Positions 936 through 29,785 of a stretch of DNA of 64,000 nucleotides are shown one piece after another. The stretch comes from an uncultured archaeon (GTDB lineage: Archaea > Micrarchaeota > Micrarchaeia > Micrarchaeales > CABMGC01): the NCBI GenBank assembly GCA_963704435.1, contig OY969902.1, positions 136,949 through 200,948 on the forward strand, given 5' to 3'. A program made the position numbers and the translations under genes. Under the pieces are notes generated by a model that searched no databases, was not told the origin of the DNA, and saw nothing but the letters and a program-made list of their open reading frames with translations. The number at the start of each line of letters is the position of its first letter. The stretch's first letter is position 1.

Positions 936-1556
936 GCTGCGCAGAAAATCTTCTTGATTCACTAGCGGGGTGCCCTCTTTCATGTTGTTAGAGACCCAGA
1001 AAATTGCACCGTCATCCAGTTGGAGGTCGCCTTCCTTAGCGCCATAAATGCTGCCGTGACGCATCACCTGAGGCAGCTTATCGGGCTGCGCTACTGGCAC
1101 CGTAAAAATTTTGCCGTCCTTCCCCCTCTGTATTACGCTTACAGATTCAGAATCTCCTTTCTTGCTGTAGTGCAGCATTCCGCGGTATACGGCGGATACC
1201 CCGTCTATATTGCCCCTCTCCACAGAGAATATGAACATCGAGATCCCCAAGACGCGGTCTCCATTCTCGTGTTCGGTCAGCTTAGCGTTGTAGTGGACTG
1301 TCCTGTTTTGTAGGAACAGTTCCTCTGACCTGTCGCGGTCGAGCGCCGGATGGGACCCGAGAAGCGAACGCAGGTTGAACACATAGCTGTTTGCCAGCCT
1401 TTCTTTCGCGGCCCTGCTGGCATAGGTCAACTTTAATGCGGCATTCTTACCCGTCTCAGTCAGCTTTGCAGGACTTAGAGCGTCCGCAAGCCGCTGCGTC
1501 AGATGCGGTTGCGTTTGCGCATCCGCGGTCTTCTGAATCACTACGTCGTCACTCAT
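930..1556 (-). CDS. hypothetical protein (208 aa)
   Basis: Only long ORF in this interval. Convergent with the methyltransferase gene and overlaps it by 6 nt. No motif recognised. Confidence 0.45.
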   Translation of the reverse strand: MSDDVVIQKTADAQTQPHLTQRLADALSPAKLTETGKNAALKLTYASRAAKERLANSYVFNLRSLLGSHPALDRDRSEELFLQNRTVHYNAKLTEHENGDRVLGISMFIFSVERGNIDGVSAVYRGMLHYSKKGDSESVSVIQRGKDGKIFTVPVAQPDKLPQVMRHGSIYGAKEGDLQLDDGAIFWVSNNMKEGTPLVNQEDFLRSL

Positions 1557-1617
1557 GTTTTCCTTTTGCCGTCAGACATATTTAAACATTGTTGAAGAAT
1601 TCGGATAGGGGCCGCAA

Positions 1618-3120
1618 TTACATGTAGCTCATAGGGTCCTTGCCTTTCCACAGGCCCAGCCTGGTGTGGAGCCACGGAGAGGTATTAAGTCCGCCCTTCT
1701 CCGCTTCCTTGTCGATCGTATCAAGAATTTTCTTAGAAACGCTGCCTGGCTTTCCGTACAGCTGCCTCTTATGCGTCGCGGCGGATCCGCCCTCCCTGTA
1801 CGCGCTCTTCATTACTTCCTCCATCCATGCGCTGCTCGCCGGTGGTACCAGGACGTTTGACTTCGCGGTGAACACCGTCTCGGGGCGCTCGGTGCTGAAT
1901 CTCGCGGTGAAAGAGAGCACTTTCGGGAAGTAAAGCAGCTCCTCCTGGAGCGACCCGGAATCAGTAAGCGCGGCCCGGCACTTGCCGCTATCGAGGAATT
2001 CCAAGACGTTCCCCCACTCCTGCCAGAGAGGGGTCATTACGAAGCGGTCCGGATGCCTTTCCGCAAGCAGCCTCAGCCTCGAGCGCAGGCCGTACTGGTC
2101 TACCGCCGCATTGGTGGCGTTCATCATTACCATCGTTACCTTCTGGCCTCCATCAACGAGGCGCTCTACAGCGCCGATTATCGAAGTGAAGCGCCTTTCA
2201 GTAAGGTTCTCCCTGCGGTGTATGTCTACGCGCAACCAATCCCCTGACTCGAGAGCGGGATAAATCTCGAATATGCTTCTAGAAGGCCTCTCCTTCCTGC
2301 GAATCTGGAGCGCGTCTGTCACCGAATTGCCAACCACTGCTATCGATTCGTCAGGATAGCCCTCCCTGAGCAGGTGCCTCCGGTTCAGTTCGACCGGAGC
2401 GAAGAAGTAACCCGTTGCAGCCGAGCATATCCAAGTATCTATCTGTTCGGGAAACGGCTCCTCCCTTGCGATGAACCATTTCCCCTCGAACTGGTCTTGC
2501 ACGAAGCGCTCTGCAGTGGCCCTTGAGGGAGCCTTGTCGGCGCTTATCCTGCGCATCGCTTCGGGGCACATCGCCCTCAGCCCGGCCTCGTTCTGCGCTA
2601 CCTTCTGGCCGATTCCGAAAGTCCACGCCAGCGAAGCGATCCCGGCGACGAGCGTATCTCCGTGCACTATCGGAAGGATTTCGACAGATTCGCCGTAGGT
2701 CTTCTTGAAGTACCTGCCGAATCCGCCGAACTTCAGGAATATCTCGCTCGCCTTCTCGACGAGGTTTCCCCTTATGTTGAGGCTGCACGCTATGAACGGT
2801 TCCATGCTGAATTCCTTTATCCCGAATCCGAGCAGGTCATCGAAATGCTGGCCGGTGTTTATCACGACCAGGGGATAGCGCCTTGAAGCGGCCTCGAGCA
2901 CGAGGGGCGCCTGCTTGTAGAAATCGGGCTTCGTGCCTATCACGACCGCGATTATCGGCTTCCCCTGCTCCTTCGAATCGCGCACCGCCTTGTCAAGCGC
3001 ATCGACGCGCACATCGACGGGAAGCATCGCATTTGAGAAACTGAGCTTGACGGATTTCCCTTCATGGGAGTTGGTTTCGCGCGCCTTGCTGCCAGCCATC
3101 AGTGGGATTTGCACATCCAC
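1618..3120 (-). CDS. UDP-N-acetylglucosamine 2-epimerase (WecB)-like protein with N- and C-terminal extensions
   Basis: Motifs VIGTKPDFYKQAPL...NTGQHFD, NEAGLR, VGNSVTDAL and DSGSLQEE follow the WecB/non-hydrolysing epimerase pattern. The ORF starts at GTG 3120. ATG at 3099 (MAGSKA...) lies 26 nt from a TATA box and may be the real leaderless start. Confidence 0.7.
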   Translation of the reverse strand: MDVQIPLMAGSKARETNSHEGKSVKLSFSNAMLPVDVRVDALDKAVRDSKEQGKPIIAVVIGTKPDFYKQAPLVLEAASRRYPLVVINTGQHFDDLLGFGIKEFSMEPFIACSLNIRGNLVEKASEIFLKFGGFGRYFKKTYGESVEILPIVHGDTLVAGIASLAWTFGIGQKVAQNEAGLRAMCPEAMRRISADKAPSRATAERFVQDQFEGKWFIAREEPFPEQIDTWICSAATGYFFAPVELNRRHLLREGYPDESIAVVGNSVTDALQIRRKERPSRSIFEIYPALESGDWLRVDIHRRENLTERRFTSIIGAVERLVDGGQKVTMVMMNATNAAVDQYGLRSRLRLLAERHPDRFVMTPLWQEWGNVLEFLDSGKCRAALTDSGSLQEELLYFPKVLSFTARFSTERPETVFTAKSNVLVPPASSAWMEEVMKSAYREGGSAATHKRQLYGKPGSVSKKILDTIDKEAEKGGLNTSPWLHTRLGLWKGKDPMSYM

Positions 3121-3130
3121 ATATAAATAT
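3121..3130 (-). promoter_or_regulatory. TATA box candidate for the WecB-like gene
   Basis: Minus-strand ATATTTATAT sits about 26 nt upstream of ATG 3099, the usual archaeal TATA-to-start spacing for leaderless mRNAs. Confidence 0.4.
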
Positions 3131-3238
3131 TGATTCTCTGCGTCAAACTGCGGAACCAGAACCGCGATTGTATTTCAGTATAGACTATTTTCGCTGAGTG
3201 CTATAAATTCTGCCGTGCGATATAAGGAGGGGCATTTT

Positions 3239-4270
3239 ATGGTGGTCATCGGGCTTACCGGAGAGAACTGCTCCGGCAAGGGGACCTTCGCGGAATACCT
3301 CGTTACGACGGGGTTCCGCTACGCGTCCCTCTCGGACGTGCTGCGCGAGGAACTCTCCGCGGAGGGTAGGGAGGTAACGCGCGAGGCGCTGATAGAGAAG
3401 GGCAACGAGCTCAGGAGGGAGGCGGGACCTGGCGTGCTGGCCAAGAGGACGATGCTCAAGATGAAGGGCGCGACGAACTGCGTCATAGACTCGGTAAGGA
3501 ACCCCAGCGAGGTCGAGGAGCTCAGGAAGGAGAAGGGCTTCACGCTCGTATACGTGACCGCTAAGCCGGTGACCAGGTTCGAGCGGATGAGGAAGAGGGA
3601 CAGGGAGGGGGACCCGAAGACCCTGGAAGCGTTCATGGAGATGGACAAGAGGGAGATGTCCTCCTCTGACCCGACGCACCAGCAGCTGCTCGCGACCTTC
3701 GAGATGGCCGACAAGCGGATGGAGAACGACTCCGACCTGCAGCACTACCACGATGGGATAGACGCGCTCGTCGGAGCGCTGGAGGGGGAGCGGTCCCTCA
3801 GGCCGTCGTGGGACGAGTACTTCCTTGAGATAGCGAAGATGGTCGGCGCCAGGGGCACGTGCGACAGGGGAAGGAACGGCGCGGTACTGACGAGGGACAG
3901 GAGGATAATCTCGACCGGATATGTCGGTTCTCCGAGAGGGCTGCCGCACTGCGACGAGGCCGGACACCTGATGAGCGACGTGCTGAACCCCGACGGGACC
4001 GTATCGAAGCACTGCGTGCGCACCACTCACGCTGAGCAGAACGCGATAGTGCAGGCTGCGCTGCACGGCGTATCGACCGAGGGATCCACGCTTTACGTCA
4101 GGTTCGAGCCGTGCTTCACGTGCGCGAAGATGCTGATCAACGCGGGGGTGAGGCGGGTCGTCTGCCAGAGGAAGTACCACGCGGGCGAGATGAGCAGGGA
4201 GTTCTTCAGGGATGCGGGGGTCGAGCTGGTCTACGTCGAGGACAAGGTCGAGGAGTATCCCGACCAGTAG
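3239..4270 (+). CDS. fusion protein: N-terminal P-loop nucleotide/nucleoside kinase-like domain + C-terminal dCMP (deoxycytidylate) deaminase
   Basis: ATG 3239 is preceded by AGGAGG (the track starts at GTG 3215, same frame). Walker A is GLTGENCSGKGT. The C-terminal half carries cytidine/dCMP deaminase zinc motifs HAEQNA and PCFTCAKMLINAGV. Confidence 0.8.
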   Translation: MVVIGLTGENCSGKGTFAEYLVTTGFRYASLSDVLREELSAEGREVTREALIEKGNELRREAGPGVLAKRTMLKMKGATNCVIDSVRNPSEVEELRKEKGFTLVYVTAKPVTRFERMRKRDREGDPKTLEAFMEMDKREMSSSDPTHQQLLATFEMADKRMENDSDLQHYHDGIDALVGALEGERSLRPSWDEYFLEIAKMVGARGTCDRGRNGAVLTRDRRIISTGYVGSPRGLPHCDEAGHLMSDVLNPDGTVSKHCVRTTHAEQNAIVQAALHGVSTEGSTLYVRFEPCFTCAKMLINAGVRRVVCQRKYHAGEMSREFFRDAGVELVYVEDKVEEYPDQ

Positions 4271-4290
4271 GCCGAGAACGGGGTGGTTCG

Positions 4291-4797
4291 ATGCCGAAAG
4301 GAAATAACGTGGAAGTGTTCATAGAAATCCCGAAGGGCGATGACAGAAGGAGGCATCTCAGCCACGACAAGAAAGAAATGCTGGACCTGGGGCCTACGAA
4401 GAACGTGATACCTGTAAGTGACGGGGTAATGCCCATCGCATATGGTTTCATAATAGGAACTCTTCAAAGGGACGAGGCGTCCAAGAACCCGAACGAAATA
4501 CCTGATGAGGTCGACGTTCTCGTTTATTCGAGAAACAGCTTCAGTGTTGGTGAAACGCTAACTGCCGTCCCCATAGCTTTCATTACCCGTGGGGACGGGG
4601 ACCACAAGGTCGTGGCCGTGGATTCCACCACGAGCGGGCAGATAAAGGAATGGGAAGACATACCCAAGAAGGAGAGGGATTTGATAACCAAGTTCTTCGG
4701 CTACAAGTATCCTATAGAATCCATAGAAGGCGCTAAGGAAGCGATTGATTACATAAACAAGAATCGCGTAAATAAGCGGGAGAAGAACCGCTCCTGA
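4291..4797 (+). CDS. ppa: inorganic pyrophosphatase (family I)-like
   Basis: MPKGNNVEVFIEIPKGDDRR... resembles the PPase N-terminus (VxIEIPKG). Acidic clusters DEVDVLV and GDGDHKVVAVD are present. The first 60 codons of track ORF 4111..4797 overlap the previous gene and are R/G-rich, so the start is set at ATG 4291. Confidence 0.6.
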   Translation: MPKGNNVEVFIEIPKGDDRRRHLSHDKKEMLDLGPTKNVIPVSDGVMPIAYGFIIGTLQRDEASKNPNEIPDEVDVLVYSRNSFSVGETLTAVPIAFITRGDGDHKVVAVDSTTSGQIKEWEDIPKKERDLITKFFGYKYPIESIEGAKEAIDYINKNRVNKREKNRS

Positions 4798-8124: not shown

Positions 8125-9333
8125 CTACAGGTTCACGTCTATGGCGAGCTCCTTCTTGAGCTCCCTGTACCTGTTCCTTATGGTGACCTCGGTCACTCCC
8201 GCGACCTCGGCCACCTCCTTCTGCGTCCTGCGCTCGCCTACGAGCGCGCTTGCGATGTAGACGGCCGCGGCGGAGACTCCGGTCGGGCTCCTCCCGCTCA
8301 CCAGGCCCCTCTTCATCGCCTGCTTCAGCAGCAGCGTGGACTTCTCCTGCGCCTCACCGCTGAGCTTAAGCGCGGCCACGTACCTGGGCACGTAGCTTAT
8401 CGGGTCGGTCAGCGGTATCTTCAGGTGGAGCTCGTGGGCTATGACCCTGTAGGTCCTGCCTATCTCCTTCTTCGGAACGCCGGATATCTGCGATATCTCG
8501 TCCAGCGTCCTCGGCATTCCCGCCTGCCTGCACGTCGCGTACAGCGCGGCGTTGACCACGGTCTCGATGGGCCTGCCCCTTATCAGGTTGTTCTTGACGC
8601 ACGACCTGTACAGCAGTGCGGCGCTCTCCCTGACGTTGTCAGGAAGGCCTAGGTAGCTTGCGACCCTGTTGAGCTCGGGCAGCGCGACGAGGTAGTTCCT
8701 CTCGCTGGAGCTCGCTATGCTCGCCCTCTTGTGCCACTTCCTTATCCTGTACAGCTGGGCCTGCCTCTTCGATGGCAGTTTCGCGCCCCTTATGTCCTTG
8801 TTGTACATGTCGATCTCTGTGACCAGGCCCTTGTTCGGCTTCATGTACTTGATCGGAGCGCCGGTCCTGGCCCTTGCATTCCTCTGCTCGGAGTCGAACG
8901 CCCTCCACTCTGGCCCGGTATCCGTGACGTTCTCCTCTATGACCAGGCCGCAGTTGTTGCAGATGTATTCGCCCCTCTCGCCGTCGAATATGATGTCGCC
9001 GCTTCCGCAGCTCGGGCAGCGCTTCACGCTCCCTATGACCTTCGGCCCCTCCTCGCCGTGGACTATGCCTATGTCAGCGCCGGCCTCCTTGTCCAGCACG
9101 TGCGCGTGCCTCTCGACCGCTATCTCGGCCGGACCGGAAATCGGCGCATGTACTGCGGCAGGCGCCCTTGCCGCGGGAGCCCTGATGGTGCGCACAGCGG
9201 ACACGTTCTGGGTGTGCCTCGCATTGGCATGCGCAGCCTTCCTGGCCTTCGCCTTGGCTGGCTTCCTCGCGGCTTTCTTAGCGACAGTCTTCTTGGCCTT
9301 CTTTGCAGTTCTCTTACGATCCTTACTCGCCAT
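8125..9333 (-). CDS. tfb: transcription initiation factor IIB (TFB) with about 100-aa basic N-terminal extension
   Basis: Zn-ribbon CPSCGSGDIIFDGERGEYICNNCG, followed by two cyclin-fold repeats and a C-terminal HTH (VAEVAGVTEVTIRNRYRELKK). The track ORF begins at TTG 9342; ATG 9333 gives MASKDRKRTAKKAKK... Confidence 0.9.
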   Translation of the reverse strand: MASKDRKRTAKKAKKTVAKKAARKPAKAKARKAAHANARHTQNVSAVRTIRAPAARAPAAVHAPISGPAEIAVERHAHVLDKEAGADIGIVHGEEGPKVIGSVKRCPSCGSGDIIFDGERGEYICNNCGLVIEENVTDTGPEWRAFDSEQRNARARTGAPIKYMKPNKGLVTEIDMYNKDIRGAKLPSKRQAQLYRIRKWHKRASIASSSERNYLVALPELNRVASYLGLPDNVRESAALLYRSCVKNNLIRGRPIETVVNAALYATCRQAGMPRTLDEISQISGVPKKEIGRTYRVIAHELHLKIPLTDPISYVPRYVAALKLSGEAQEKSTLLLKQAMKRGLVSGRSPTGVSAAAVYIASALVGERRTQKEVAEVAGVTEVTIRNRYRELKKELAIDVNL

Positions 9334-9486
9334 TCTAATCAACCTTGTTTTTCGTCTAAAATATAAGATAGTCTTTTAAATTTTGCTAAAAAGAGTAATT
9401 AATTTAGTGATTAAATAGATATTTAAACCTTTCGTTGGGGCTTCCGCCCACGGGAGGGCCGGACTGAAACAATCCTGCCGTAGATT

Positions 9487-10116
9487 TCACCTGGCCACCA
9501 GTCCCGCAAATCTCTTTGGGGCCAGGCCCTGCACAATGTCGCTCTCCTCGGTGTAGTAAAGGCAGGACGGACCGATTCGCTCAACCTTCTCGCCTGCTTT
9601 ACTAAGCGTCCCGCCGGTCCGTATGTAGTCGTCGAACATGACCGCCTTCGACATCGCCTTAATGAGTCTCATGTCCTCTCCAGACACGCACAGACCGCTG
9701 TCGCGCTGATACTCGATGAGGACGAACTCGAACGGCTTTCCGCGCTCCAGCAGCTGCCCCGCAACGTACGCTGCCGGGTATATCCCGGAGCGCATGAGGG
9801 GTATGAGCGCGACCCTGCCCCAGAATCTGCCCAGCAGATGATCCACATACTTGTCTTCGTTTGAGACGCGGCCGCAGTCAGTCAGCCGCATGCCAATCGC
9901 TTCGATGCTGAACTCGCCGTAGGTCCTTCCTCTTGCGCACTCGGCAAGCTCCATGAAACTCTGCCTGAGCTCCGACCTCACCTCGCCTCTCTCGCTTTCG
10001 CTCCTGCTGCGGTCGAACTGAAGTGACCACAGCTCTCTTATCCTGTGAAGGGAAGGTGGCCTCTTCAAGTCATTGAACGTGCCTGCAACGGCTGCCGCTT
10101 TTTGCACCGTATCCAT
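9487..10116 (-). CDS. phosphoribosyltransferase-like protein
   Basis: PRPP-binding-like motif AVMFDDYIRTGGTL near the C-terminus. The rest is unrecognised. Confidence 0.45.
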   Translation of the reverse strand: MDTVQKAAAVAGTFNDLKRPPSLHRIRELWSLQFDRSRSESERGEVRSELRQSFMELAECARGRTYGEFSIEAIGMRLTDCGRVSNEDKYVDHLLGRFWGRVALIPLMRSGIYPAAYVAGQLLERGKPFEFVLIEYQRDSGLCVSGEDMRLIKAMSKAVMFDDYIRTGGTLSKAGEKVERIGPSCLYYTEESDIVQGLAPKRFAGLVAR

Positions 10117-10282
10117 GCTTTTATTATGCCTTCTCCGGTATAAAAACGTGCTTCAGGAAAGTGCCCATAACGCTCTGGGAAGAATAGGGCGTCGCTCCAA
10201 TCGAACAGTTCGGGGCTCAATTTATAAATGTTCTTGATTAATAACATATTACAGTTGCTTTTCTGAGTTTTTAGGGTATCTA

Positions 10283-13340: not shown

Positions 13341-13682
13341 TCACAGCCTCTTCTTTATGAAATCGGCAAGCACGATCGCGCTGTTGTGCTCGGTGTCCTT
13401 CGCCGAGTAGACGAGCGTCACGTCGGTCTGCTTCACCATCGCTATGAGCTCTCCGACCTCGCCGTTGGTCTCAAGCTCCTTCTCGTACTTCCTCCTGAAC
13501 TCGTCCCATTTCGCGGGGTCGTGGGCGAACCACTTCCTCAGCGCGTCGCTGGGCGCGACCTCCTTCATCCAGAGGTCTATGCTCTGCGAGCTCTTCTTCA
13601 CTCCGCGTGGCCAGAGGCGCTCCACGAGGACCATCTTTCCGTCCGTGAGGTCCCTCCTTTCGTAGACCCTCTTCATTCCCAT
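13341..13682 (-). CDS. DUF488 family protein
   Basis: MGMKRVYERRDLTDGKMVLVERLWPRGVKK...APSDALRKWFAHDPAKWDEFRRKY...TLVYSAKDTEHNSA matches the DUF488 consensus. Start moved to ATG 13682 because the longer track ORF overlaps the upstream gene. Confidence 0.8.
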   Translation of the reverse strand: MGMKRVYERRDLTDGKMVLVERLWPRGVKKSSQSIDLWMKEVAPSDALRKWFAHDPAKWDEFRRKYEKELETNGEVGELIAMVKQTDVTLVYSAKDTEHNSAIVLADFIKKRL

Positions 13683-13719
13683 GAGCACAAAGGCACCGAT
13701 TTCAATTCTGTCTGCACAT

Positions 13720-14238
13720 TTAAATACGTTGGCTTGTTTTTTCTCGGGCGGATGGCATCTTTCCGACGGCCGAGGCGAGCAGGCTCTCCTTCCCGACAAG
13801 GGACAGGAATGATCCGATGTTCATGACCTTCCCGTTCCGCATGTGTATGTCCAGCATCTCAAGCATGAGTCCGTCGGCCTGGTCGAGCCTAGAGAAGTAG
13901 ACCCCCCTCTCGTTCACGAATCCCTTCGAGTCGAGCATGCCGGCCACGAGGCACGCCGCGAGCTCGCGGCTCCTCTTCGGGAGCGAGGCCTTCCGCTCGA
14001 GGATCTCCCTTATCATCCGGGCTATCCTAGAATGGTAGAAATGGACGTGCTTGACCTCGCCGCTCTCCTCGATAAGTATCTTCTTAGGGTCCGCGCCGAG
14101 CGCGAGGGCGAACTTCACGAACCGCTCCACTAGCTCGTCATTGCGCGTCCTGACCCCGATGTAGCTCTTGTCGGGGACCCTGTAGTTGTCCATGACTCCT
14201 GCGAGGTAGCACAGCTCCCTTGTAGTCCTGAAGCGCAT
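13720..14238 (-). CDS. LAGLIDADG-like (double-motif) homing-endonuclease-like protein, free-standing
   Basis: Two dodecapeptide-like motifs about 85 aa apart: YLAGVMDNYRV (res 11-21) and CLVAGMLDSKGFV (res 96-108). The 172-aa size fits monomeric double-motif enzymes. Confidence 0.4.
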   Translation of the reverse strand: MRFRTTRELCYLAGVMDNYRVPDKSYIGVRTRNDELVERFVKFALALGADPKKILIEESGEVKHVHFYHSRIARMIREILERKASLPKRSRELAACLVAGMLDSKGFVNERGVYFSRLDQADGLMLEMLDIHMRNGKVMNIGSFLSLVGKESLLASAVGKMPSAREKTSQRI

Positions 14239-14262
14239 GGTAAGAATGGGACGGATAAGGAT

Positions 14263-17200
14263 TTAAGCGTTGGAAGGCTGCTCCGATGAACGCTGCACGG
14301 CCATGAGCGGCTCCGCGGAGGCTACGGCTATCGTGCCTGCCCCCTCGACCCGCTCGTTGCCGTCCAATTCTTTTTTATTATATGTTGAACCTGCGGCATC
14401 CAGAGGGTTGTCGATGGGAATCTCTTGCCCCCATTCGGAGAACCCGAAAGGAACCTCGTTGGAGATGCCGGACTCAAAGGCTCTGAACAAATCGCCCATC
14501 CCCCTGAGTTCCATAGCCCGCACCGGAACGTTGCGGCGGCTGCACGCCCTTGTGAGGGAAGCGACCCGGTTATCTCCTGCGTATAGCTCGAATTTCATGT
14601 GAACGTCGTTTTTCTTGAGGGAATCATGGCGCTGATCTCCAAAGATCGCGCCCTTGTTGCTGACAAATACGTACGTGATTATCACCTTGTCGAGGCTCTT
14701 TTCCCTACCCTTCTCAACGACCTCACAGTACATCCTCGGGAACCTGATCTTTCCCTTGGAAGTGGCCATCACAAAGTCCTTCAATGGGAGGCCGTCCTTA
14801 CTGTCCTTGAACACAGGGAACCAAAGATCGGGCCGCACGGCTGCGCTCCCTGACTCAGTCTTGAAAAGCAGTTTCAATTGCACCTTCGGAGGCGCCGAGG
14901 CCTGCTTGGAAGATATAGGATTTGCTGGGACAGCTTCGCGGACGGTCCTTCCGAGGTCACGGAGGCGCGGCAGTGGTGGAGAGTCGCTGATTATGTGGTA
15001 TCCCTGCCCGCCGCGAGCAAGCTTACCGTCCGAGACGAGAGTAGCGATAGCGTGCACGACATCCGGCTTCTTCCTTCCGGTCATCTCCGTTATCTCCTCA
15101 GGCGTGCAAGACCCCGTCTTCCCTATCTTTTCCAAGATATCTGCGCGAACCTCTGTGGCCGGATCGGGAACATAGTATCCTTTTTTCCAGAACTGGATCG
15201 TACTGGCCGATTTGAGCGCGCTCAGCGCGTTGGCGACCTTGGATTGGTCCATCCCAATGGCGCTGGATATCGCACCTACGTCTGCCAGCCCAAGCTTCCC
15301 GAGAACATTGAGGATCGCATTGCAGGTTTGCGCATCATACGGCTTGTTTTTATTGACCGAACTCCCCTTGTTGGACTTCAGTTCCGTCCGGGTGATGCTC
15401 TCTGCCGGCACAAGTTCCACATTGATGGAGTCGGATGAGTCCTGAATTATTTTCTCGGAGTCGAGACCCTTCAGGTAATATTTGCCGCTGTTCTTGCTCC
15501 ACAGCTCCGCCACGCCATTCTTCATAAGTTCCTTCAGCGCATCACGGATATCTTGCAGGGATAGGTTGGCCGCCATCGCCTTTTCGGTGTTTGCGATTTC
15601 TTTGGGACGCATGTAGCGCTTCTCCTTCAGGATCTCCACGACCACACCCTGCGCTGCGGCCATCTTCGTAGCTTCCACATCAGATTGCTCCTTAGCGGCC
15701 TGGCCAGCCCGGGCCTGAAGGATCTGCTTGTTGTTAGCGATTGCGGATGCGACATCCGCAATTCCGAAAGCGCCGTCCTTGATTCTGAATCGGTTTGCCT
15801 TGGGGGAGGGAATGCACTCTATTAGCCCTTCCCGCGCGAGTTCATCCAATGAGCGAGTCATCATAGACGCTCTCGCACCGAGTCGCTTCCTTAGGACGGA
15901 CAGCGGCAACCTTCTCTCATCAAGGGCGATTATGGCCAGGATTTCAGCGTTCCTCTCGGCAACCTTATTGAGGTGCCTACCCGCATAGACTGAATTGAGG
16001 TACAGGTTGGCAAAATCAACAAACTTCCCGGTGGCCAGCGTCTCTTGAAGCTGCGGGTTTGCCCCAAGCGCGACGTCTGCGGCGAAGGCAGGCACCGGCT
16101 CAGCCAGGATTGCCAAAGCAGCCGCTGTGGACGGCACCGCTACGACCGCCGAAGTGGTCTGCACAGGACCTAGCTCGATGACATACTTCGGCATTGTGAA
16201 GTCTATCCGCCGGATTGGAGGATATCCCAGGTCTTGGGGGGTGCTTGCTGCGTTCCTGCCCCCTGAGAATTCAGTCATAGACGCCAGAGAGATCCTGACG
16301 TCCTCCATCCGCGCAGGCACCATGGCGGGATGCGTGGGAACCAGGAAGTGGGTATCGCTTGTTGTAGCCAGAGGCATTGGATTCGCCACAGTAACCGCCA
16401 TCGCAGGCTTAGCGTCGGCGCGCTCGGTTCCAGCAGTGGGAACGATGATGTGTTGTGTTTTCTTATGAAGGGCCTCCTTTCTTTTAGCGAACGGGCTTGT
16501 GCGGGCGCGCTTTGGATTGGTCTTGGCAGCAACTGGAACGATAACTTTTCTAGATCCATCATTGATGGTGGGCGGCGCGTCTGTTTCTGCTACATTATCT
16601 TCATCAACGACGCGGTATTTACCCCATCCAGTACACTCGATCAACCCTTCCCTCCAGAGCTCCGTGCGCATCTGGCGTACATAGGCTTCAGTCATATGCA
16701 TAGCGTTGGCGACCCTGGCCGGGCTATCGCTCTGCCGAAAGGCTGCAAGAACAGCATAAAGCCTTCTTCTGGACGAATTTCCAGAGGGCGCTTGGGATTG
16801 CCTTAGCGCTTCTTCCTTGCCTGCCTCTGTGAGTTCATAGACGCCATTCTTCCTTACGACATAGCCGTTCTTAATGAGCTTTGTCCCAATCCTGCATGCT
16901 GATGATTTACTACGCAAGCCAAGGATGCCAGTCAGCTGCGTTCTGGAGAGACTGCCTTGATCGGAATTATAGACGGCCTTGAGAAATTTCACGGCGTTGT
17001 CTGGCAGCTTTAAATCCATTGCAGGTGCAAGCTCCACTTCTCCATCTGGGTTTTCGTCGATGCGGTATGCGCCTTTGCCTTCGTGTAAGACTTTTCCCTC
17101 CTTCTGGAGCCCTCTAATAGTCTTCCACACCTCTCCGCTGTCTGCACCTAAATCTTTGGCGATTTTAGCTATGCCATCGCCATTTCCGATGGCCTCTCGA

Positions 17201-17697
17201 ATAGTAACCCGCAGCGCGTTGGTGTCTTCGGCACTCTTAAGCGCAGTCTTGCCTGCCTCTGTGAGTTTGTAGGAGTCCTCCGTCAGGGAGACATAGCCCC
17301 TTTTGGCGAGGCGCGTTCCTATCTTCACTACTGAATCCTTAAACGTCGGGGCGAGGACTTCTGATAGTTGCAGCCCAGTAAGGGAACCTTTCTCTGAGCC
17401 CTGGATGGCGCTAAGGAAGTCCAAGGATTTGTCCGACAGCCATGCACTTTTACCCGGACTTGGTAGGAATGCAGGCTCTGCCGCTGTGTCGGCATTCTCG
17501 TTGATTCGATATCTTCTATGGTGTGGAGTGCCATCGCGCAGAAGCTTCCCTTCGTCAACGAGCTCATTGAGTATTTGGCATACCCTGCTAGGGGTAACGC
17601 GAATTTTACATGCCGACTCTTTGGAATCAAAGTTTTCGCTCCGTATGTCGTCCAGAAGGGACTTGCGCATCTCAACTGATTTCGCGTGGTTTGTCAA
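14263..17697 (-). CDS. 1,144-aa multi-winged-helix protein (about 9 tandem wHTH modules + uncharacterised C-terminal domain)
   Basis: Uninterrupted ORF. Recurrent helix-plus-beta-hairpin endings are RRYRINE, SYKLTEAGKTAL, GAYRIDE, GVYELTEAGKEEAL, GKYRVVDE, NRFRIKD, GKYYLKG, KGYYVPD and GYHIIS. TTG start at 17697; first ATG at 17670. Confidence 0.75.
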   Translation of the reverse strand: MTNHAKSVEMRKSLLDDIRSENFDSKESACKIRVTPSRVCQILNELVDEGKLLRDGTPHHRRYRINENADTAAEPAFLPSPGKSAWLSDKSLDFLSAIQGSEKGSLTGLQLSEVLAPTFKDSVVKIGTRLAKRGYVSLTEDSYKLTEAGKTALKSAEDTNALRVTIREAIGNGDGIAKIAKDLGADSGEVWKTIRGLQKEGKVLHEGKGAYRIDENPDGEVELAPAMDLKLPDNAVKFLKAVYNSDQGSLSRTQLTGILGLRSKSSACRIGTKLIKNGYVVRKNGVYELTEAGKEEALRQSQAPSGNSSRRRLYAVLAAFRQSDSPARVANAMHMTEAYVRQMRTELWREGLIECTGWGKYRVVDEDNVAETDAPPTINDGSRKVIVPVAAKTNPKRARTSPFAKRKEALHKKTQHIIVPTAGTERADAKPAMAVTVANPMPLATTSDTHFLVPTHPAMVPARMEDVRISLASMTEFSGGRNAASTPQDLGYPPIRRIDFTMPKYVIELGPVQTTSAVVAVPSTAAALAILAEPVPAFAADVALGANPQLQETLATGKFVDFANLYLNSVYAGRHLNKVAERNAEILAIIALDERRLPLSVLRKRLGARASMMTRSLDELAREGLIECIPSPKANRFRIKDGAFGIADVASAIANNKQILQARAGQAAKEQSDVEATKMAAAQGVVVEILKEKRYMRPKEIANTEKAMAANLSLQDIRDALKELMKNGVAELWSKNSGKYYLKGLDSEKIIQDSSDSINVELVPAESITRTELKSNKGSSVNKNKPYDAQTCNAILNVLGKLGLADVGAISSAIGMDQSKVANALSALKSASTIQFWKKGYYVPDPATEVRADILEKIGKTGSCTPEEITEMTGRKKPDVVHAIATLVSDGKLARGGQGYHIISDSPPLPRLRDLGRTVREAVPANPISSKQASAPPKVQLKLLFKTESGSAAVRPDLWFPVFKDSKDGLPLKDFVMATSKGKIRFPRMYCEVVEKGREKSLDKVIITYVFVSNKGAIFGDQRHDSLKKNDVHMKFELYAGDNRVASLTRACSRRNVPVRAMELRGMGDLFRAFESGISNEVPFGFSEWGQEIPIDNPLDAAGSTYNKKELDGNERVEGAGTIAVASAEPLMAVQRSSEQPSNA

Positions 17698-17729
17698 CCC
17701 GCACCCCCGCTACGTAATCGGGTGCGCAC

Positions 17730-17757
17730 GAATATAATCCTTGACATATTCAGGATT
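17730..17757 (-). promoter_or_regulatory. palindrome overlapping a TATA-like box upstream of the multi-wHTH gene
   Basis: Plus strand AATCCT-TGACATATTC-AGGATT (17736..17757; 6-bp arms). Minus-strand ATTATATT lies at 17730..17738, about 35-65 nt upstream of the TTG/ATG starts. Confidence 0.3.
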
Positions 17758-17793
17758 TAGCAAGGTAGCAAGGCTACACATTCACTGGTCGTG

Positions 17794-18483
17794 CTAGGAA
17801 TTGCTGCTAATTTTGACTCCCACTTTTGTTGCATGCTCATACGCTCCGACCAAAGGGCGAATATCTTCGAGAGATAATGGCGAGGGCCTTCTCATAGCAT
17901 CATGGAATGACACTTTAAGGTTAGGATCATTACTATCTCCGACTTTAGTGACATATCTGTAGTATGCGGATTTGAGAATTTCGTGAAGGCCATCCCCAAA
18001 TTGCGTTACCGAGTCGATAGCCGCTCCGCTTTCGTAAAAGGATGCAGTTGGAAGGAAGGATTTTACGCGGCCGACGGTCATTTGGTAATGGCTGTTATCG
18101 CGAAGCCTAACCAGCCAGGTGGTGTTTTCCACTGCAGCTATTGTGAGCATATCTGACGAATTATCCAGCTCTTCGGATTTTTTAGCTTTCATATAATCCG
18201 CGATAACTTCATCAAATTTTCTGACTTTGCTACTCAAGAGAGGAAGATTGTACACTGCTTGAGTAAGACCAGATTGCGGACGATTATCTTCGATGTGCAC
18301 TTGCGGCATAAAATAAAGCTTATACCCCTCACCTTGGGGAAGGGTTATGGCTAAAATAGCATTTCCTTCTGCGGGATACTTCCTCACAGCGAGCGTGCTA
18401 TCGATATTTAGAAACTTTGCTATATTGCAACAAATATCTGCTTCCCAGACGACTCGCCTGGTCTCCTCGTCACCCGCTCTCAA
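17794..18483 (-). CDS. hypothetical protein (229 aa), G+C-poor orphan
   Basis: Long ORF on the same strand, directly upstream of the multi-wHTH gene. No motif recognised. Very low local G+C (line 18181 = 20/60). Confidence 0.5.
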   Translation of the reverse strand: MRAGDEETRRVVWEADICCNIAKFLNIDSTLAVRKYPAEGNAILAITLPQGEGYKLYFMPQVHIEDNRPQSGLTQAVYNLPLLSSKVRKFDEVIADYMKAKKSEELDNSSDMLTIAAVENTTWLVRLRDNSHYQMTVGRVKSFLPTASFYESGAAIDSVTQFGDGLHEILKSAYYRYVTKVGDSNDPNLKVSFHDAMRRPSPLSLEDIRPLVGAYEHATKVGVKISSNS

Positions 18484-18561: not shown

Positions 18562-18600
18562 CCTTGAGGGAAATGCAAACGAAATGCGCAGCTGCACGGG
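18562..18600 (-). other. 16S rRNA trailer arm of the leader/trailer processing helix
   Basis: Trailer RNA ...CCCGUGCAGCUGCGCAUUUCGUUUGCAUUUCCCUCAAG is complementary to leader CUUGAGGAAAUGCAAACGA...CGCAGUUGCAUCAGGG (20139..20184). That gives about 19 + 13 bp with an internal loop and bulges. Confidence 0.7.
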
Positions 18601-18649
18601 CTAAACCTAATCGAGAAACTTATTCTCTTGTGTCTCGTTAAAAATATAC

Positions 18650-20133
18650 GAGGTGATCTATCCGCAGGTTCCCCTACGGATACCTTGTTACGACTTGACC
18701 CCCCTCACAAAGCTTTAGTTCGAAGGCGCCGTAGGCGCCGCCTCACTAAAACCCTACTTGGGTGATCTGACGGGCGGTGTGTGCAAGGAGCGGGGACATA
18801 TTCACCGCTTGATAGTGACGAGCGATTACTAGGGATTCCAGTTTCATGAGGGCGAGTTTCAGCCCTCAATCCAAACTTTGACTGCTTTTGGGGGATTGGC
18901 TTCCCCTCTCGGGGTTGCGACCCATTGTAGCAGCCTCTGTATGCCGCGTGTAGCCCTAGAGATTCGGGGCATACTGACCTACCGTCGCCCCCTCCTTCCT
19001 CCTCCTTAAACGGAGGCGGTCCCGACAGAGTGCTCGGCCCGTCTCCGGACCGGTGGCAACTGTCAGCGGGGCTCTCGCTCGTTACAGGACTTAACCTGAC
19101 ACTTCACAGCACGAGCTGACGATGGCCATGCACCACCTCTCGGCTCGTAAGGTAAAGTCTTTAGCTTGACCTTCATCCTGCCGTCGCTCTAGGTAATGTT
19201 TCTGACGTTGTATTCAATTAAACCGCAGCATCCACCCCTTGTGGTGCTCCCCCGCCAATTGCTTTAAGTTTCAACCTTGCGGCCGTACTCCCCAGGCGGC
19301 AGACTTATCAGTTTCCCTACGGTACTGCGCTGACACGCGGTCAGTGCAACACCTGAGTCTGCATAATTTACTGCTAGGGCTACTCGGGTATCTAATCCGA
19401 TTCGTTCTCCTAGCCTTCGCCACTCACCGTCGGATGTGTTCTGACCAAGCGCCTTCGCCACCGGTGGTCCTTTTAGGATTACAGGATTTTACCCCTACCC
19501 CAAAAGTACCCTTGGTCTCTCCCACTCCCTAGCCGGAAGGTATCCTACGCACGGGTTGACGTTGAGCGCCAACATTTCACGCAGGACTGTTCCAGCAGGC
19601 TACTGGCCCTTTAAGCCCAATAATCGCGGACACCGCTTGTGCCGCCGGTATTACCGTGGCGGCTGCCACCGGTCTTACCCAGCACTTATTCGCCAAGCTG
19701 TTTGGACTTGGCAAAAGGCGAACCGAAGTTCGCCACTCAGACTTCCCCCATCACGCTTACGCGCATTGTGGAGTTTTCGCGCCTGCTGCACGCCGTAGCG
19801 CTAGGACCCTTGTCTCAGTGTCCTTCTCGGGGCTCTTGCTCCCACATCCCCTACGGGTCAAAGGCATGGTGGGCCGTTACCCCGCCATCAACCTGATCCG
19901 ACGCGGCCTCATCGCAGGGCAGAAGCGCTGCAATTCGCGCCCCTTTGAGCTATGGAACATTCCAGTATCCTTAGCCTATGGAGTATTAGCCTTAGTTTCC
20001 CAAGGTTATCCTCCTCCCTGCGGTAGATTAGCCACGCGTTACTGAGCCGTACGCCGCCGAACGAAGCCGTTCAGCTGACTTGCATGGCTGTCGAAATCTG
20101 ATAGTAGTGTCCTCCAGCAGCATCGACTGGTGT
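18650..20133 (-). rRNA. rrs: 16S (SSU) ribosomal RNA, complete, no large intron
   Basis: The reverse complement contains the SSU landmarks: 5' CCAGUCGAUGCUGCUGGAGG, 530 loop GUGGCAGCCGCCACGGUAAUAC, 915 region AGCAAUUGGCGGGGGAGCAC, and 3' AAGUCGUAACAAGGUAUCCGUAGGGGAACCUGCGGAUAGAUCACCUCG. Ends are +/- a few nt. Confidence 0.95.
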
Positions 20134-20138
20134 TGAAA

Positions 20139-20184
20139 CCCTGATGCAACTGCGAGTGTATAATATCGTTTGCATTTCCTCAAG
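20139..20184 (-). other. 16S rRNA leader arm of the processing helix
   Basis: See the trailer arm feature. The inverted repeat brackets the mature 16S, as expected for the archaeal pre-rRNA bulge-helix-bulge processing stem. Confidence 0.7.
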
Positions 20185-24283: not shown

Positions 24284-24550
24284 TCAGCAGCGGGCGGGTT
24301 CGTTTGGAGCGAGGATGCCCTTCCCGGCCAGTTGGCGCGCCGAATTGGGATCCCTTCTTTCGATTTCCAGTGCTGCAGCGAGCTCCTTCTGGACTCCTGA
24401 ACGGATGGCAGCAAGCAGGGGAATGCAGCTGTGCGGGTTGCAGCTCATCTCCGAGTTAATTTTGAGCAATTCCCGCTCCAGTGCCGGAACGCTGGGCATC
24501 TTGCGCGTTTCTGCGCCACGGTTTGGATCATTATTCAGCAACGCATTCAC
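24284..24550 (-). CDS. hypothetical protein (88 aa), weak call
   Basis: ORF in the otherwise non-coding gap between aIF6 and the IS. No motif. Could be spurious. Confidence 0.25.
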   Translation of the reverse strand: MNALLNNDPNRGAETRKMPSVPALERELLKINSEMSCNPHSCIPLLAAIRSGVQKELAAALEIERRDPNSARQLAGKGILAPNEPARC

Positions 24551-24602
24551 CGATACGTGATGCGTTTTTCACATATTTAAGCGTTGCCCGCGTTTTCGGC
24601 CT

Positions 24603-25572
24603 TGTCATATCCCGCAATAATGTCCTCTCGTCAAAAAATAAAGAAACGAGAGAGGGCAATTATTTTATGCGGAAACTCACTAAGAGGAAGATTCGGTGGA
24701 TTATCGAGTATTCCAGGGAAGGAATGTCCATCTACAGACTGTCGATACTCCTGAAAGTGACGCCAAGGCACATCAGAAGGGTAATACGGAAATACGACGG
24801 CATTAAACTGTATCTCGTAGGCAAGGAACGCAGAAGACCGTGCGGCAGGGTTCTGGTCCCGATCACGGAGGAACAGCGGCTTATGGTCCTGGACAGGTAC
24901 ATTGCCGAACCCATGTGCGCTTCCATAATGGAAAGGGTTATAGAAGACGAGAACGGAGTACACATACCTCATAACAGGATTCACCGAATACTATCGGAAG
25001 CGGGAAAGGTGGAATTCGTGGACAAGAAAATACGCAGAAAGAGCTGGGTCAGGTATGAGAGAAGGCACAGCAACAGCCTTTGGCACGCGGATTTCTGCGA
25101 GATAAACGGCAAACAGGTCATCGTGTATATCGATGATGCATCGAGACTCATCGTAGGATACGGATTATTCGATAATGCGACGACAGACAATGCGCTTCTC
25201 GTTCTCAGGGCAGCGGTAAAGATGTATGGGGCGCCGAAGCAGGTAATGACTGACCATGGTGCGCAGTTCTGCGCCAATGAGGAGAAGGAATACAAGTTCA
25301 CCGAGGAACTGAAAAGACTCGGAATCGAACACATAATGGCGAAGGTAAAGAGGCCGCAGTCGAACGGCAAGATTGAGAGATTCTTCGGAACTCTGAAGAG
25401 GCTCTTGCGCCATTTCGGTGATCTGGATAGGTCCGTGGCCTGCTACAACAACAGGTTCCACCTGTCCCTTGAGATGTCTCCGGCGAAGGCATTTGCCCTG
25501 AAAATGCGAAAGGAATAAGAGGCGAGAATGTGAACTCAGTTTACAGAGAGGACATTAATTCGGGATACCACA
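24603..25572 (+). mobile_element. IS481-like insertion sequence (about 970 bp) with TG...CA ends, 27-bp imperfect terminal inverted repeats and a 14-16 bp target-site duplication
   Basis: IRL is TGTCATATCCCGCAATAATGTCCTCTC (24603..24629). IRR read inward is TGTGGTATCCCGAATTAATGTCCTCTC (25572..25546), matching at 23/27. Direct repeat CGCGTTTTCGGCCT(TG) lies immediately outside both ends (24589..24604 and 25573..25588). Confidence 0.8.
24667..25518 (+). CDS. DDE (rve/integrase-core) transposase with N-terminal HTH
   Basis: HTH region RKIRWIIEYSREGMSIYRLSILLKVTPRHIRRVIRKY. Catalytic-triad context WHADFCEI, VYIDDASRL and PQSNGKIERFF. Start at ATG 24667 inside the longer track ORF. Confidence 0.85.
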   Translation: MRKLTKRKIRWIIEYSREGMSIYRLSILLKVTPRHIRRVIRKYDGIKLYLVGKERRRPCGRVLVPITEEQRLMVLDRYIAEPMCASIMERVIEDENGVHIPHNRIHRILSEAGKVEFVDKKIRRKSWVRYERRHSNSLWHADFCEINGKQVIVYIDDASRLIVGYGLFDNATTDNALLVLRAAVKMYGAPKQVMTDHGAQFCANEEKEYKFTEELKRLGIEHIMAKVKRPQSNGKIERFFGTLKRLLRHFGDLDRSVACYNNRFHLSLEMSPAKAFALKMRKE

Positions 25573-29257: not shown

Positions 29258-29785
29258 ATGAAAGTCATTTTGTACATGGCAATGACGCCAAACGGAATGA
29301 TAGCCACGGAAGACGATGACACGAGTTGGGTCAGCGAAAACGAGTGGAAAAGTTTTAGTGGCATGATAAAGAGATATGGAAACATGGTTATTGGCAGGCG
29401 AACCTATGAGATTATGCTAAGAAATGGCGATTTCAATAAATCAGATCTTAACGGAATAAAAACCGTCGTTTTGACAAGCAGATCGATAAGAACTCATGAT
29501 CTAAAATCGGTGCATACGGCTAAATCTCCTAGGGAGGCGCTGAACATCCTAAAAGAATTCAAAATTCTGATGGTCTGCGGCGGCGGCGGATTGAATGCAA
29601 GTTTCATGAAAGAAAGTCTGATTAATGAGATTTATCTTGATATTGAGCCGATCGCGTTTGGAAAAGGCGTACGGCTCTTTTCAGAAGCCAATTTTTCAAC
29701 TAAATTGAAACTTGTTGGAACAAGAAAACTTTCAAAGAATGAAATCCAACTTCATTATAAAGTTATCGGAGCAGCTGAAAGATAA
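29258..29785 (+). CDS. dihydrofolate reductase-family / RibD C-terminal domain protein
   Basis: MKVILYMAMTPNGMIA...WVSENEWKSF...MVIGRRTYE...LMVCGGGGLNASFMKESLINEIYLDIEPIAFGKG follows the RibD_C/DHFR-like pattern. AT-rich gene (line 29401 = 18/60 G+C). Confidence 0.6.
   Translation: MKVILYMAMTPNGMIATEDDDTSWVSENEWKSFSGMIKRYGNMVIGRRTYEIMLRNGDFNKSDLNGIKTVVLTSRSIRTHDLKSVHTAKSPREALNILKEFKILMVCGGGGLNASFMKESLINEIYLDIEPIAFGKGVRLFSEANFSTKLKLVGTRKLSKNEIQLHYKVIGAAER

Follow-up and report, generated by a model that had tools for sequence, protein, structure and literature searches.

The 64,000-nucleotide (nt) stretch of DNA analysed here (the window, to whose whole length all coordinates refer), from a tiny, symbiotic and uncultured Micrarchaeales archaeon, encodes next to its 16S rRNA gene a protein of 1,144 amino acids (aa) made of nine winged-helix (wH) domains in two clusters, a disordered linker between the clusters and a conserved C-terminal domain (CTD). 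The gene is real, expressed-looking and lineage-specific, and its architecture is unusual, not unprecedented. The protein is of the tandem winged-helix kind, with a CTD of unmatched fold and a hyperdivergent cassette, in a layout already known from TFIIIC220. At a probability of about 0.45, we read the gene product as a multivalent protein, specific to Micrarchaeales, that binds nucleic acids, most likely DNA, and was put together at this locus as domains accreted. Its family is specific to the lineage and arose in place; the locus is not an island of recent import. The large gene and its parts are:

14263..17697 (-), gene for the 1,144-aa multi-winged-helix protein (124 kDa, isoelectric point (pI) 9.3): five wH domains, disordered linker, four wH domains, CTD
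16597..17670 (-), N-terminal wH cluster, units 1-5 in the order A-B-A-B-A, aa 10-367; three helices and two strands per unit in AlphaFold2, predicted local distance difference test (pLDDT) 63-87
15973..16596 (-), disordered linker rich in A, P, T and V, aa 368-575; pLDDT ~25, and composition
14983..15972 (-), second wH cluster, units 6-9, aa 576-905; Pfam, AlphaFold2 and 67% identity to the sister strain
14413..14862 (-), conserved alpha/beta CTD of unmatched fold, aa ~946-1095; motifs WFP, LxDF, FPRMYxE, YxF and FRxFE

The loci compared are L001, a Logan contig that covers the complete large gene; L002, the locus of a sister strain, used as the divergence reference; L003, from a relative more distant than L002; and L004, L032 and L039, from more distant, family-level Micrarchaeales relatives, L004 being one 11.5-kb contig of a metagenome-assembled genome (CAVSOP010000011). 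The 16S rRNA gene of the window is 98.7% identical to that of L002 and 93.6-93.8% identical to those of L032 and L039. Among named genomes the nearest is LFW-125_1, whose S3Ae is 75% and whose TFB is 91% identical; it is a Micrarchaeales assembly of 0.82 Mb that is 85% complete and has 54.7% G+C (PMC8561730). The window is accordingly placed in a DPANN Micrarchaeon.

Gene reality and composition

The earlier note on this DNA had described an uninterrupted open reading frame (ORF) of 1,144 codons at 14263..17697 (-) and one of 229 codons (orf229) at 17794..18483 (-), and both are present as claimed. The TTG start at 17697 aligns with a GTG in L002 and an ATG in L003, and each of the aligned starts follows by 4-6 nt a conserved GGGTGCGG element that holds a Shine-Dalgarno-like GGTG; the TTG start is supported by this agreement. 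Logan and ENA assemblies of other runs and samples match the window at 100% identity, L001 across the full gene and the others across parts of it. This rules out assembly as the source of the long ORF; an artefact of that kind had been named as an outcome that would overturn the original description. Measured against L002, the ratio of nonsynonymous to synonymous divergence (dN/dS) is 0.27-0.47 across the gene, which indicates purifying selection throughout and therefore a functional gene.

Both genes had also been described as poorer in G+C than the backbone. This holds for orf229, which is clearly low (G+C 0.451; G+C at third codon positions (GC3) 0.439), and not for the large gene, whose G+C of 0.545 lies within one standard deviation of the gene mean (0.570, sd 0.047) and whose tetranucleotide distance has a z of 0.2. 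Its composition is backbone-like; only its GC3 (0.617) is lower, falling below that of most other long ORFs in the window (mostly 0.70-0.87). Other ORFs with markedly low G+C or GC3 are scattered through the window at 29258-29785 (+), 60386-61186 (-), 61391-61846 (-) and 24481-25518 (+); the one at 29258-29785 has a G+C of 0.394 and a GC3 of 0.409, and low GC3 is thus not peculiar to the large-gene locus.

Winged-helix modules and linker

All nine unit endings that had been picked out by eye are found in the protein (aa 40-67, 126-153, 190-215, 270-298, 340-366, 616-641, 717-744, 821-845 and 880-904), and their assignment to winged helices is borne out by profiles and, for units 1-7, by a predicted structure with the three-helix bundle and beta-hairpin wing that define the superfamily. 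In the whole-protein Pfam scan, MarR (44.8 against a gathering cut-off of 24.6 bits), MarR_2, HVO_A0261_N, HTH_IclR, TrmB, Fe_dep_repress and HTH_45 exceed their gathering cut-offs, and NCBIfam adds partial matches to ArsR, Csa3-HTH and Sso10a-type models. When the units are scanned singly, all matches stay below threshold, and most of those of seven of the nine units are to wH or helix-turn-helix (HTH) families; unit 6 matches MarR, MarR_2 and IclR, unit 8 TrmB and ArsR, unit 9 MarR, and unit 7 weakly SelB-wing_1. For unit 1 the sole match, and for units 2 and 5 the best match, is to an unrelated family. AlphaFold2, run on a four-sequence alignment, gives units 1-7 a helix-helix-helix-strand-strand topology (pLDDT 55-87). 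With the full-length model as query, Foldseek ranks tandem-wH proteins first, the best being a SelB C-terminal fragment (E 1.7e-7), followed by UFL1/DDRGK1, TFIIIC tauB, RPC62, ScpB and ESCRT-II and then by single-wH regulators, with probabilities of ~1.0 to wH proteins.

The units are 57-73 aa long and have pI values of 6.1-10.4, eight of the nine lying at 8.1-10.4. The alternation A-B-A-B-A of the first five had been ascribed to duplication of a two-domain unit, in agreement with which A1B1 and A2B2 are 40% identical (E 9e-21) and the DNA repeats at a 432-nt spacing. Between units 6 and 7 the AlphaFold2 model has a long helix at aa ~646-693. The A/P/T/V-rich linker is likewise as described: A, P, T and V make up 45% of it, residues ~366-578 are disordered at a pLDDT of ~25, and its C-terminal third (aa ~479-575) is conserved with L002 at 62% identity.

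C-terminal domain

The CTD is modelled by AlphaFold2 with a core pLDDT of 70-89. That the C-terminal part of the protein matches nothing recognised has been confirmed: the CTD has no family match in Pfam at E<=10 and none in a PDB profile search, and Foldseek returned no significant fold match, the best E values being 0.078 against PDB and 0.012 against BFVD, with template-modelling (TM) scores of 0.31 or less. The CTD was considered as a PD-(D/E)xK nuclease, from the pattern LPDF…E.EK and faint matches to influenza PA, and this reading was rejected, as the E and K positions are not conserved in the paralogue P0003 or in L032; it is also countered by the fold matches, all at E>=0.01 and TM<=0.3. 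A remote paralogy between orf229 and the CTD was rejected as well, the alignments being in consistent register but not significant (P 0.29-0.68).

Stand-alone proteins of 170-188 aa are encoded just downstream of the 16S gene in L032 and L039. They are homologous to each other (E 3e-12), and their profile aligns with the CTD through IPRM, VEYSFA, VSICYVC and LGSVGDRFRDKFE (hhalign P 1.8e-4, probability 48%). On these alignments we hold with moderate confidence that they represent the ancestral form of the CTD, which was probably derived from a stand-alone gene already at this locus. The stand-alone homologue in L032 (9093-9659, 188 aa) overlaps a long alternative frame, 9128-9976, that enters the orf172 promoter and closes with -SSNA. 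In view of the high G+C this frame is probably spurious; a frameshift in the contig is also possible.

Relatives at the same locus

The family is very rare. Searched exhaustively with HMMER, 1.84 billion representative proteins yielded three relatives (P0002, P0003 and P0004), all encoded at this same locus, and these carry 2, 5 or ~9 HTH modules on the same CTD. A word-index homology search with the whole protein and with the CTD returned self or nothing. Scans of GTDB genomes, JGI metagenomes and IMG/VR for the FPRMY pattern found no relatives and missed L002 as well; the collections or the pattern are therefore incomplete.

The orthologue P0002 (1,121 aa, L002 3190-6555) is 55-58% identical to the window protein and lies in the gene order 16S, orf228, large gene, orf172, DUF488. 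At the position of unit 5 (residues ~320-420) it has a divergent segment with a faint HTH_23 (transposase/resolvase-type) signal and no A-type wH. In L003, two paralogues stand in tandem between the end of the 16S gene and orf172, DUF488 … S3Ae, S15: P0004 (503 aa, 837-2348), with two wH domains, a linker and the CTD, and P0003 (624 aa, 2460-4334), with A-B-A-B-A and the CTD. A separate 172-aa protein with two wH domains is encoded at 162-680 of the same locus, after the 16S end and in the slot of orf229, making three wH genes in tandem.

L004 and L039 carry no wH gene at this point; there the orf229-like gene directly adjoins the orf172-like one. The large gene is thus an addition between orf229 and the LAGLIDADG-like gene orf172, as had been supposed. 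These loci and L003 dissolve the proposed two-gene module of orf229 and the wH gene, whose co-occurrence was looked at in the relatives: orf229 occurs without a wH gene in L004 and L039, and wH genes occur without orf229 in that slot of L003.

These arrangements suggest that wH arrays accreted onto a local gene. The course of events that we propose starts with the FPRMY domain as a small alpha/beta protein whose gene lay downstream of 16S; it would have gained N-terminal arrays of the duplicated A-B unit, and in one subclade this small local gene would have been enlarged by fusion and duplication, from the stand-alone CTD to forms with two, five and then nine wH domains. On the sequences compared, the shorter family members show the second wH cluster as a late addition.

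Mosaic divergence from the sister strain

The divergence of the large gene from L002 is strongly uneven. In blastn comparisons, DNA identity is 91% from 20290 to 17572, undetectable from 17572 to 16229, and 80% from 16229 to 13335. The corresponding feature, and Nei-Gojobori estimates of amino-acid identity, synonymous divergence (dS) and dN/dS for window against L002, are:

16229..17572 (-), hyperdivergent segment, codons ~42-490 (most of wH1-5 and the first part of the linker)
wH1-5: 38% aa identity, dS 1.68, dN/dS 0.35
First part of linker: 36% aa identity, dS saturated, dN/dS not computable
wH6-9: 67% aa identity, dS 0.46, dN/dS 0.46
CTD core: 79% aa identity, dS 0.38, dN/dS 0.27
C-terminal tail (aa 1096-1144): 40% aa identity, dS 1.25, dN/dS 0.44
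orf229: 75% aa identity, dS 0.40, dN/dS 0.35
orf172: 81% aa identity, dS 0.59, dN/dS 0.21
DUF488: 86% aa identity, dS 0.27, dN/dS 0.26

In the hyperdivergent segment dS is 1.68 or saturated, against 0.27-0.59 in the remaining gene (leaving aside the short divergent C-terminal tail) and its neighbours. This excess is synonymous, and relaxed or positive selection alone is therefore insufficient to account for it. The pattern points to an old polymorphism, or to recombination in which a divergent allele replaced the segment.

Promoter regions

Two stretches with promoter-like features flank the coding sequence:

17698..17793 (-), spacer upstream of the large gene, with a palindrome at 17736-17757, TATA-like ATTATAT at ~17731-17738 and Shine-Dalgarno-like GGGGGTG at 17702-17708
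14239..14277 (-), promoter-like element CCAACGCTTAAATCCTTATCC of orf172, a 21-nt element resembling a TFB-recognition element and TATA box, 24-27 nt before the ATG; conserved in six loci, across genera

The palindrome AATCCT-N10-AGGATT reported earlier is present in the spacer and unique in the window, where 0.02 copies are expected. Its right arm abuts the TATA-like ATTATAT. Its arms are found again before the L002 orthologue (AATCtT-N10-AGGATT) and before the gene for P0004 in L003 (ATCCT-N7-AGGAT), and the sequence between them varies in composition and in length (10, 10 and 7 nt in the window, L002 and L003, respectively). Regulators of the MarR, ArsR, TrmB and IclR types typically bind inverted-repeat operators. 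The suggestion that the palindrome is a repressor operator stands in so far as an inverted repeat does overlap a TATA-like box, and is weakened in that the left arm may be a TATA-like relic; an operator is possible, and the sequence can be read just as simply as two TATA-like elements, at ~17754-17761 and ~17731-17738. Upstream of the gene for P0003 in L003 there is a different inverted repeat, AACTTT-N6-AAAGAGTT, which also abuts a TATA-like box. The hexamer AGGATT/AATCCT has 10 of its 32 copies in the 64-kb window within the 3.8 kb from 14258 to 18057, where ~2 are expected, and most of these fall within the coding sequence of the large gene. AGGATTWTAWA was tried as a general promoter motif and set aside, since 4 matches against 1.35 expected are too little enrichment to interpret, and a scan for sigma-70 promoters and terminators is uninformative for an archaeon.

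The orf172 element overlaps the last four codons (PSNA) and the stop of the large gene, whose frame ends in the TAA of the TATA-like box. CCAACGCTTAAATCCTTATCC is kept whichever gene lies upstream: in L002 it comes after a premature TAG, and L003 has a second copy behind P0004. Because the element is conserved whatever gene precedes it, the conserved -SNA end of the protein is a by-product of the promoter and not a protein signal; the C-terminal -PSNA had been considered as a sorting or degradation signal and was discarded, being the translated promoter element. Its position suggests that the orf172 transcript is leaderless or has a very short leader.

Comparison with known tandem winged-helix proteins

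The statement that known multi-wH proteins carry two to four domains does not hold, as human TFIIIC220 has nine, arranged as five, a flexible linker and four (PMC11811891). These are WH1-4 and eWH, then a linker of ~550 aa in human, then WH5-8; yeast tau138 has 1,161 aa, a linker of ~100 aa and is predicted to lack WH8 (PMC11811891). The WH domains of TFIIIC220 jointly read DNA, and the linker tethers the two modules (PMC11811891). The window protein, with five wH domains, a linker of ~210 aa and four more, has the same layout, as an architectural resemblance only, and yeast tau138 is similar to it in size. Foldseek aligns it with TFIIIC tauB chains from yeast and human (9gc3_A, E 6e-5 over 663 columns; 8cli_A, E 5e-4) at TM-scores of 0.07-0.14. 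There is no detectable sequence homology: no TFIIIC family is among the 25 listed of 30 Pfam matches at E<=1, and no eukaryotic protein is among the three relatives. TFIIIC220 has a B-block binding domain and no FPRMY-type CTD. It works in a six-subunit eukaryotic complex, with the WD40 subunits tau91 and tau60 and the TPR subunit tau131 as partners, whereas no TFIIIC-subunit match occurs among the Pfam-scanned window ORFs near the large gene, and the archaeal family, unlike TFIIIC220, is confined to one Micrarchaeales subclade. Since sequence homology and a nearby TFIIIC partner are lacking, the family is limited to one subclade and the second cluster came late, the likeness is one of convergent design and not of membership; the layout of five, linker and four is an independent re-invention of the TFIIIC220 arrangement.

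The best structural match, the C-terminal domain of SelB (1lva, E 1.7e-7; 2uwm), is a tandem chain of four wH domains, but SelB has an EF-Tu-like GTPase and binds SECIS RNA, and the window protein has no GTPase family match. UFL1-DDRGK1, RPC62/Rpc82, ESCRT-II and ScpB also carry serial wH domains (8b9x, E 1.2e-5; 2xub, 1.7e-4; 3cuq; 3w6j). They are protein- or ribosome-binding scaffolds in defined complexes, whose partners are unmatched among the Pfam-scanned window ORFs. The best per-unit sequence matches are to MarR, ArsR, TrmB and IclR regulators, a likeness to which the inverted repeat at the gene's own promoter can be added, but these are proteins of ~100-150 aa with one wH and dimerisation helices, in contrast to nine bare wH units and a novel CTD. 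The window protein does not belong to the MarR family proper, whose members have ~140-150 aa and a single wH between N- and C-terminal dimerisation helices: the matches cover only profile positions ~15-57, the wH core, and MarR sequences in PDB match at E 0.3-1 only. The match of the B-type units (…GYV…YELTEAGKEEAL) to Sso10a/HTH_45 covers the wing and the beginning of the next helix, with the NCBIfam model Sso10a_fam aligning at aa 273-295, but the score is 30.4 against a 60-bit cut-off, and Sso10a is a small dimeric single-wH protein. The likeness to Csa3, CasR and CARF regulators and other defence proteins in PADLOC does not extend to a sensor or effector joined to a wH beside cas or defence genes. 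The view that the architecture cannot be assigned to a described family is thus right in that the whole protein fits none of them and the CTD is unmatched; it goes too far with respect to the layout, which TFIIIC220 shares.

Possible functions

Under the reading that we favour, two mildly basic wH clusters, of five and four domains, joined by a disordered tether of ~210 residues, would contact two DNA regions, or DNA and a partner, at variable distance, in the manner of the two wH clusters of TFIIIC220. The N-terminal cluster would be a variable reading head, the conserved CTD would carry an invariant function such as oligomerisation or the binding of a partner or ligand, and the inverted repeat over the TATA-like box of the gene's own promoter may permit autoregulation. 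Architecture, rarity, synteny, purifying selection and mosaic divergence are observed, and DNA binding, tethering and autoregulation inferred. In favour of this reading, the protein and eight of its nine units are basic, and the disordered linker separates the two clusters. Several points tell against it. Single units all fall below the Pfam thresholds (best E per unit 1e-4 to ~0.1, with 0.04-0.11 at the weak end); units 8 and 9 appear in AlphaFold2 as three-helix bundles of low confidence and are supported by profiles only, and all structure models were built on four-sequence alignments. The homology of the CTD to the stand-alone proteins, at a probability of 48%, is moderately supported. The left arm of the palindrome, CTAAATCCT, resembles the TATA element CTTAAATCCT of the orf172 promoter. 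Finally, wH domains also bind RNA, as in SelB, or proteins, as in ESCRT-II, RPC62 and UFL1, and these are the best structural matches.

This last point leads to a scaffold that binds RNA or protein, either a ribosome- or rRNA-associated factor or an assembly platform like UFL1, RPC62 or ESCRT-II. The closest folds, SelB wH1-4 (which binds SECIS RNA) and UFL1/DDRGK1 (a ribosome-bound wH scaffold), would fit it, as would a locus that lies directly downstream of 16S in L002, L032 and L039 and, in L003, on a contig that starts with the 16S 3' end. The gene, however, is preceded by a promoter-like region of its own and is not enclosed by the 16S processing stem, and those per-unit matches that indicate wH are to DNA-binding regulators (such as MarR, ArsR, TrmB and IclR). 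The wH array is also absent from family-level relatives that retain the same locus, and the protein is therefore not a core ribosome factor. We regard a scaffold role as distinctly unlikely. A conflict or specificity factor, that is, a defence or exclusion sensor or a protein of symbiont-host interaction with the N-terminal array as a swappable cassette under diversifying selection and the CTD as effector, is unlikely too, yet it draws on the mosaic divergence: between strains with 98.7% identical 16S genes, identity is 36-38% in the array and linker, where dS is saturated, and 80-91% in the flanking DNA, a sign of allelic replacement or recombination. Copy and domain numbers vary (L003 has tandem paralogues plus a gene with two wH domains), gene order shifts after DUF488 even in the sister strain, and GC3 is below that of most other long ORFs in the window. 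Against such a factor, PADLOC matches are limited to the wH parts of Csa3, CARF and CasR models (profile positions ~120-210), profile scans found no CARF, nuclease or NTPase domain in the 1,144-aa protein, and no effector-like fold matches the CTD. The surrounding genes are of ribosomal-protein, TFB and housekeeping type, with no cas or defence genes in scans of the window ORFs, and reading the sequence reveals neither a signal peptide nor a transmembrane segment.

The earlier note had seen here a horizontally acquired low-GC island of two genes and had thought of a virus, plasmid or defence role. A recently acquired mobile-element gene (for virus or plasmid replication or partition) in a foreign low-GC island with orf229 is very improbable and the least supported explanation. 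The large gene is an insertion relative to L004 and L039, and its absence from family-level relatives is a partial point for an island; orf229 is low in G+C; two TAAATCCT-containing elements bracket the large gene; and PHROG gives weak matches to phage regulators, through wH segments only. But the G+C and tetranucleotides of the large gene are backbone-like, it is syntenic in L002, the strain with 98.7% 16S identity, and in the more distant L003, and orf229 belongs to the conserved block and not to the wH insertion. Neither an integrase, nor a tRNA target, nor long direct repeats at the borders were found in the window, the bracketing TAAATCCT-type element being only 9 nt long. The locus thus lacks the composition and the adjacent integrase or tRNA of a genomic island. 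The large gene has no paralogue elsewhere in the 64-kb window, tblastn against 50,697 phage records and 72,556 plasmids found no homologue, and neither did a scan of IMG/VR. The most far-reaching form of the comparison with TFIIIC220 would make the protein a prokaryotic counterpart of that design, with two tethered wH clusters that bridge two nucleic-acid sites, the N-terminal one an exchangeable, hypervariable specificity cassette; it would found a new class of programmable recognition protein in DPANN archaea, possibly engaged in genetic conflict or dealings with a host, with the new-fold CTD as effector. We consider this improbable. The favoured reading remains that of a multivalent, most likely DNA-binding protein.

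Neighbouring genes and locus

The large gene sits in the following setting:

18648..20133 (-), 16S rRNA gene, which anchors the conserved locus; processing-stem arms at 18569-18585 and 20163-20179
17794..18483 (-), orf229, lineage-restricted and low in G+C, part of the conserved block downstream of 16S
13720..14238 (-), orf172, LAGLIDADG-like, directly downstream of the large gene; 58-81% identity in five loci

In family-level Micrarchaeales relatives the conserved block consists of 16S, orf229, the LAGLIDADG-like orf172 and DUF488. The 16S gene adjoins it in L002, L032 and L039, and L003 begins with the 16S 3' end; beyond DUF488, gene order differs even in the sister strain. The 16S gene is bracketed by a 17-nt inverted repeat (18569-18585 and 20163-20179; 94% complementary), most likely the pre-rRNA processing stem. 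No 23S gene occurs in the 64-kb window, where 16S stands alone. By Pfam, the window ORFs around the locus encode TFB, a PRTase, S15, S3Ae, a PMT_2 glycosyltransferase, a PNPOx-like protein, DUF488 and endonuclease dU.

The gene orf229 had been taken for an orphan, but the relatives encode homologues of its product at 36-75% identity. The gene orf172 always adjoins the DUF488 gene (orf172 at L002 6595-7113; L003 4359-4856; L004 1782-2294 and 9081-9590; L032 10001-10501; L039 3236-3736). Its product has the motifs YLAGVMDNYR and LVAGMLDSKG, in which, as read from the sequence, the usual catalytic D/E positions hold Y and K; it matches Pfam Hom_end at E 0.014-0.035 only, below the cut-off, and no PDB sequence. 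It may be a domesticated, inactive homing-endonuclease fold. The DUF488 ORF at 13341-13799 (-) has 152 aa if read from an upstream TTG, a form that overlaps the end of orf172; gene callers and homologues favour a length of ~111-113 aa (compared at L001 5003-5338). In L004 the orf229-like/orf172-like/DUF488 block is present twice in inverted orientation, at 1147-2712 (+) and 8667-10225 (-), with hardly any difference between the copies; the inverted duplication is either genuine or arose in assembly.

Implications

With three relatives among 1.84 billion representative proteins and no family name, proteins of this kind are invisible to annotation. The genomes of DPANN archaea are ~1 Mb in size and hold few regulators, and a 124-kDa protein made almost wholly of DNA-reading modules is therefore a large investment for such an organism. 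The locus displays the stepwise, in-place growth of a tandem-domain protein, from an apparently stand-alone CTD to two, five and nine wH domains, and it is a sharp example of a hyperdivergent cassette within an otherwise conserved gene. If the variable head sets binding specificity, the family would be a natural model of how multi-wH proteins recognise DNA and of how uncultured symbionts diversify at the level of strains.

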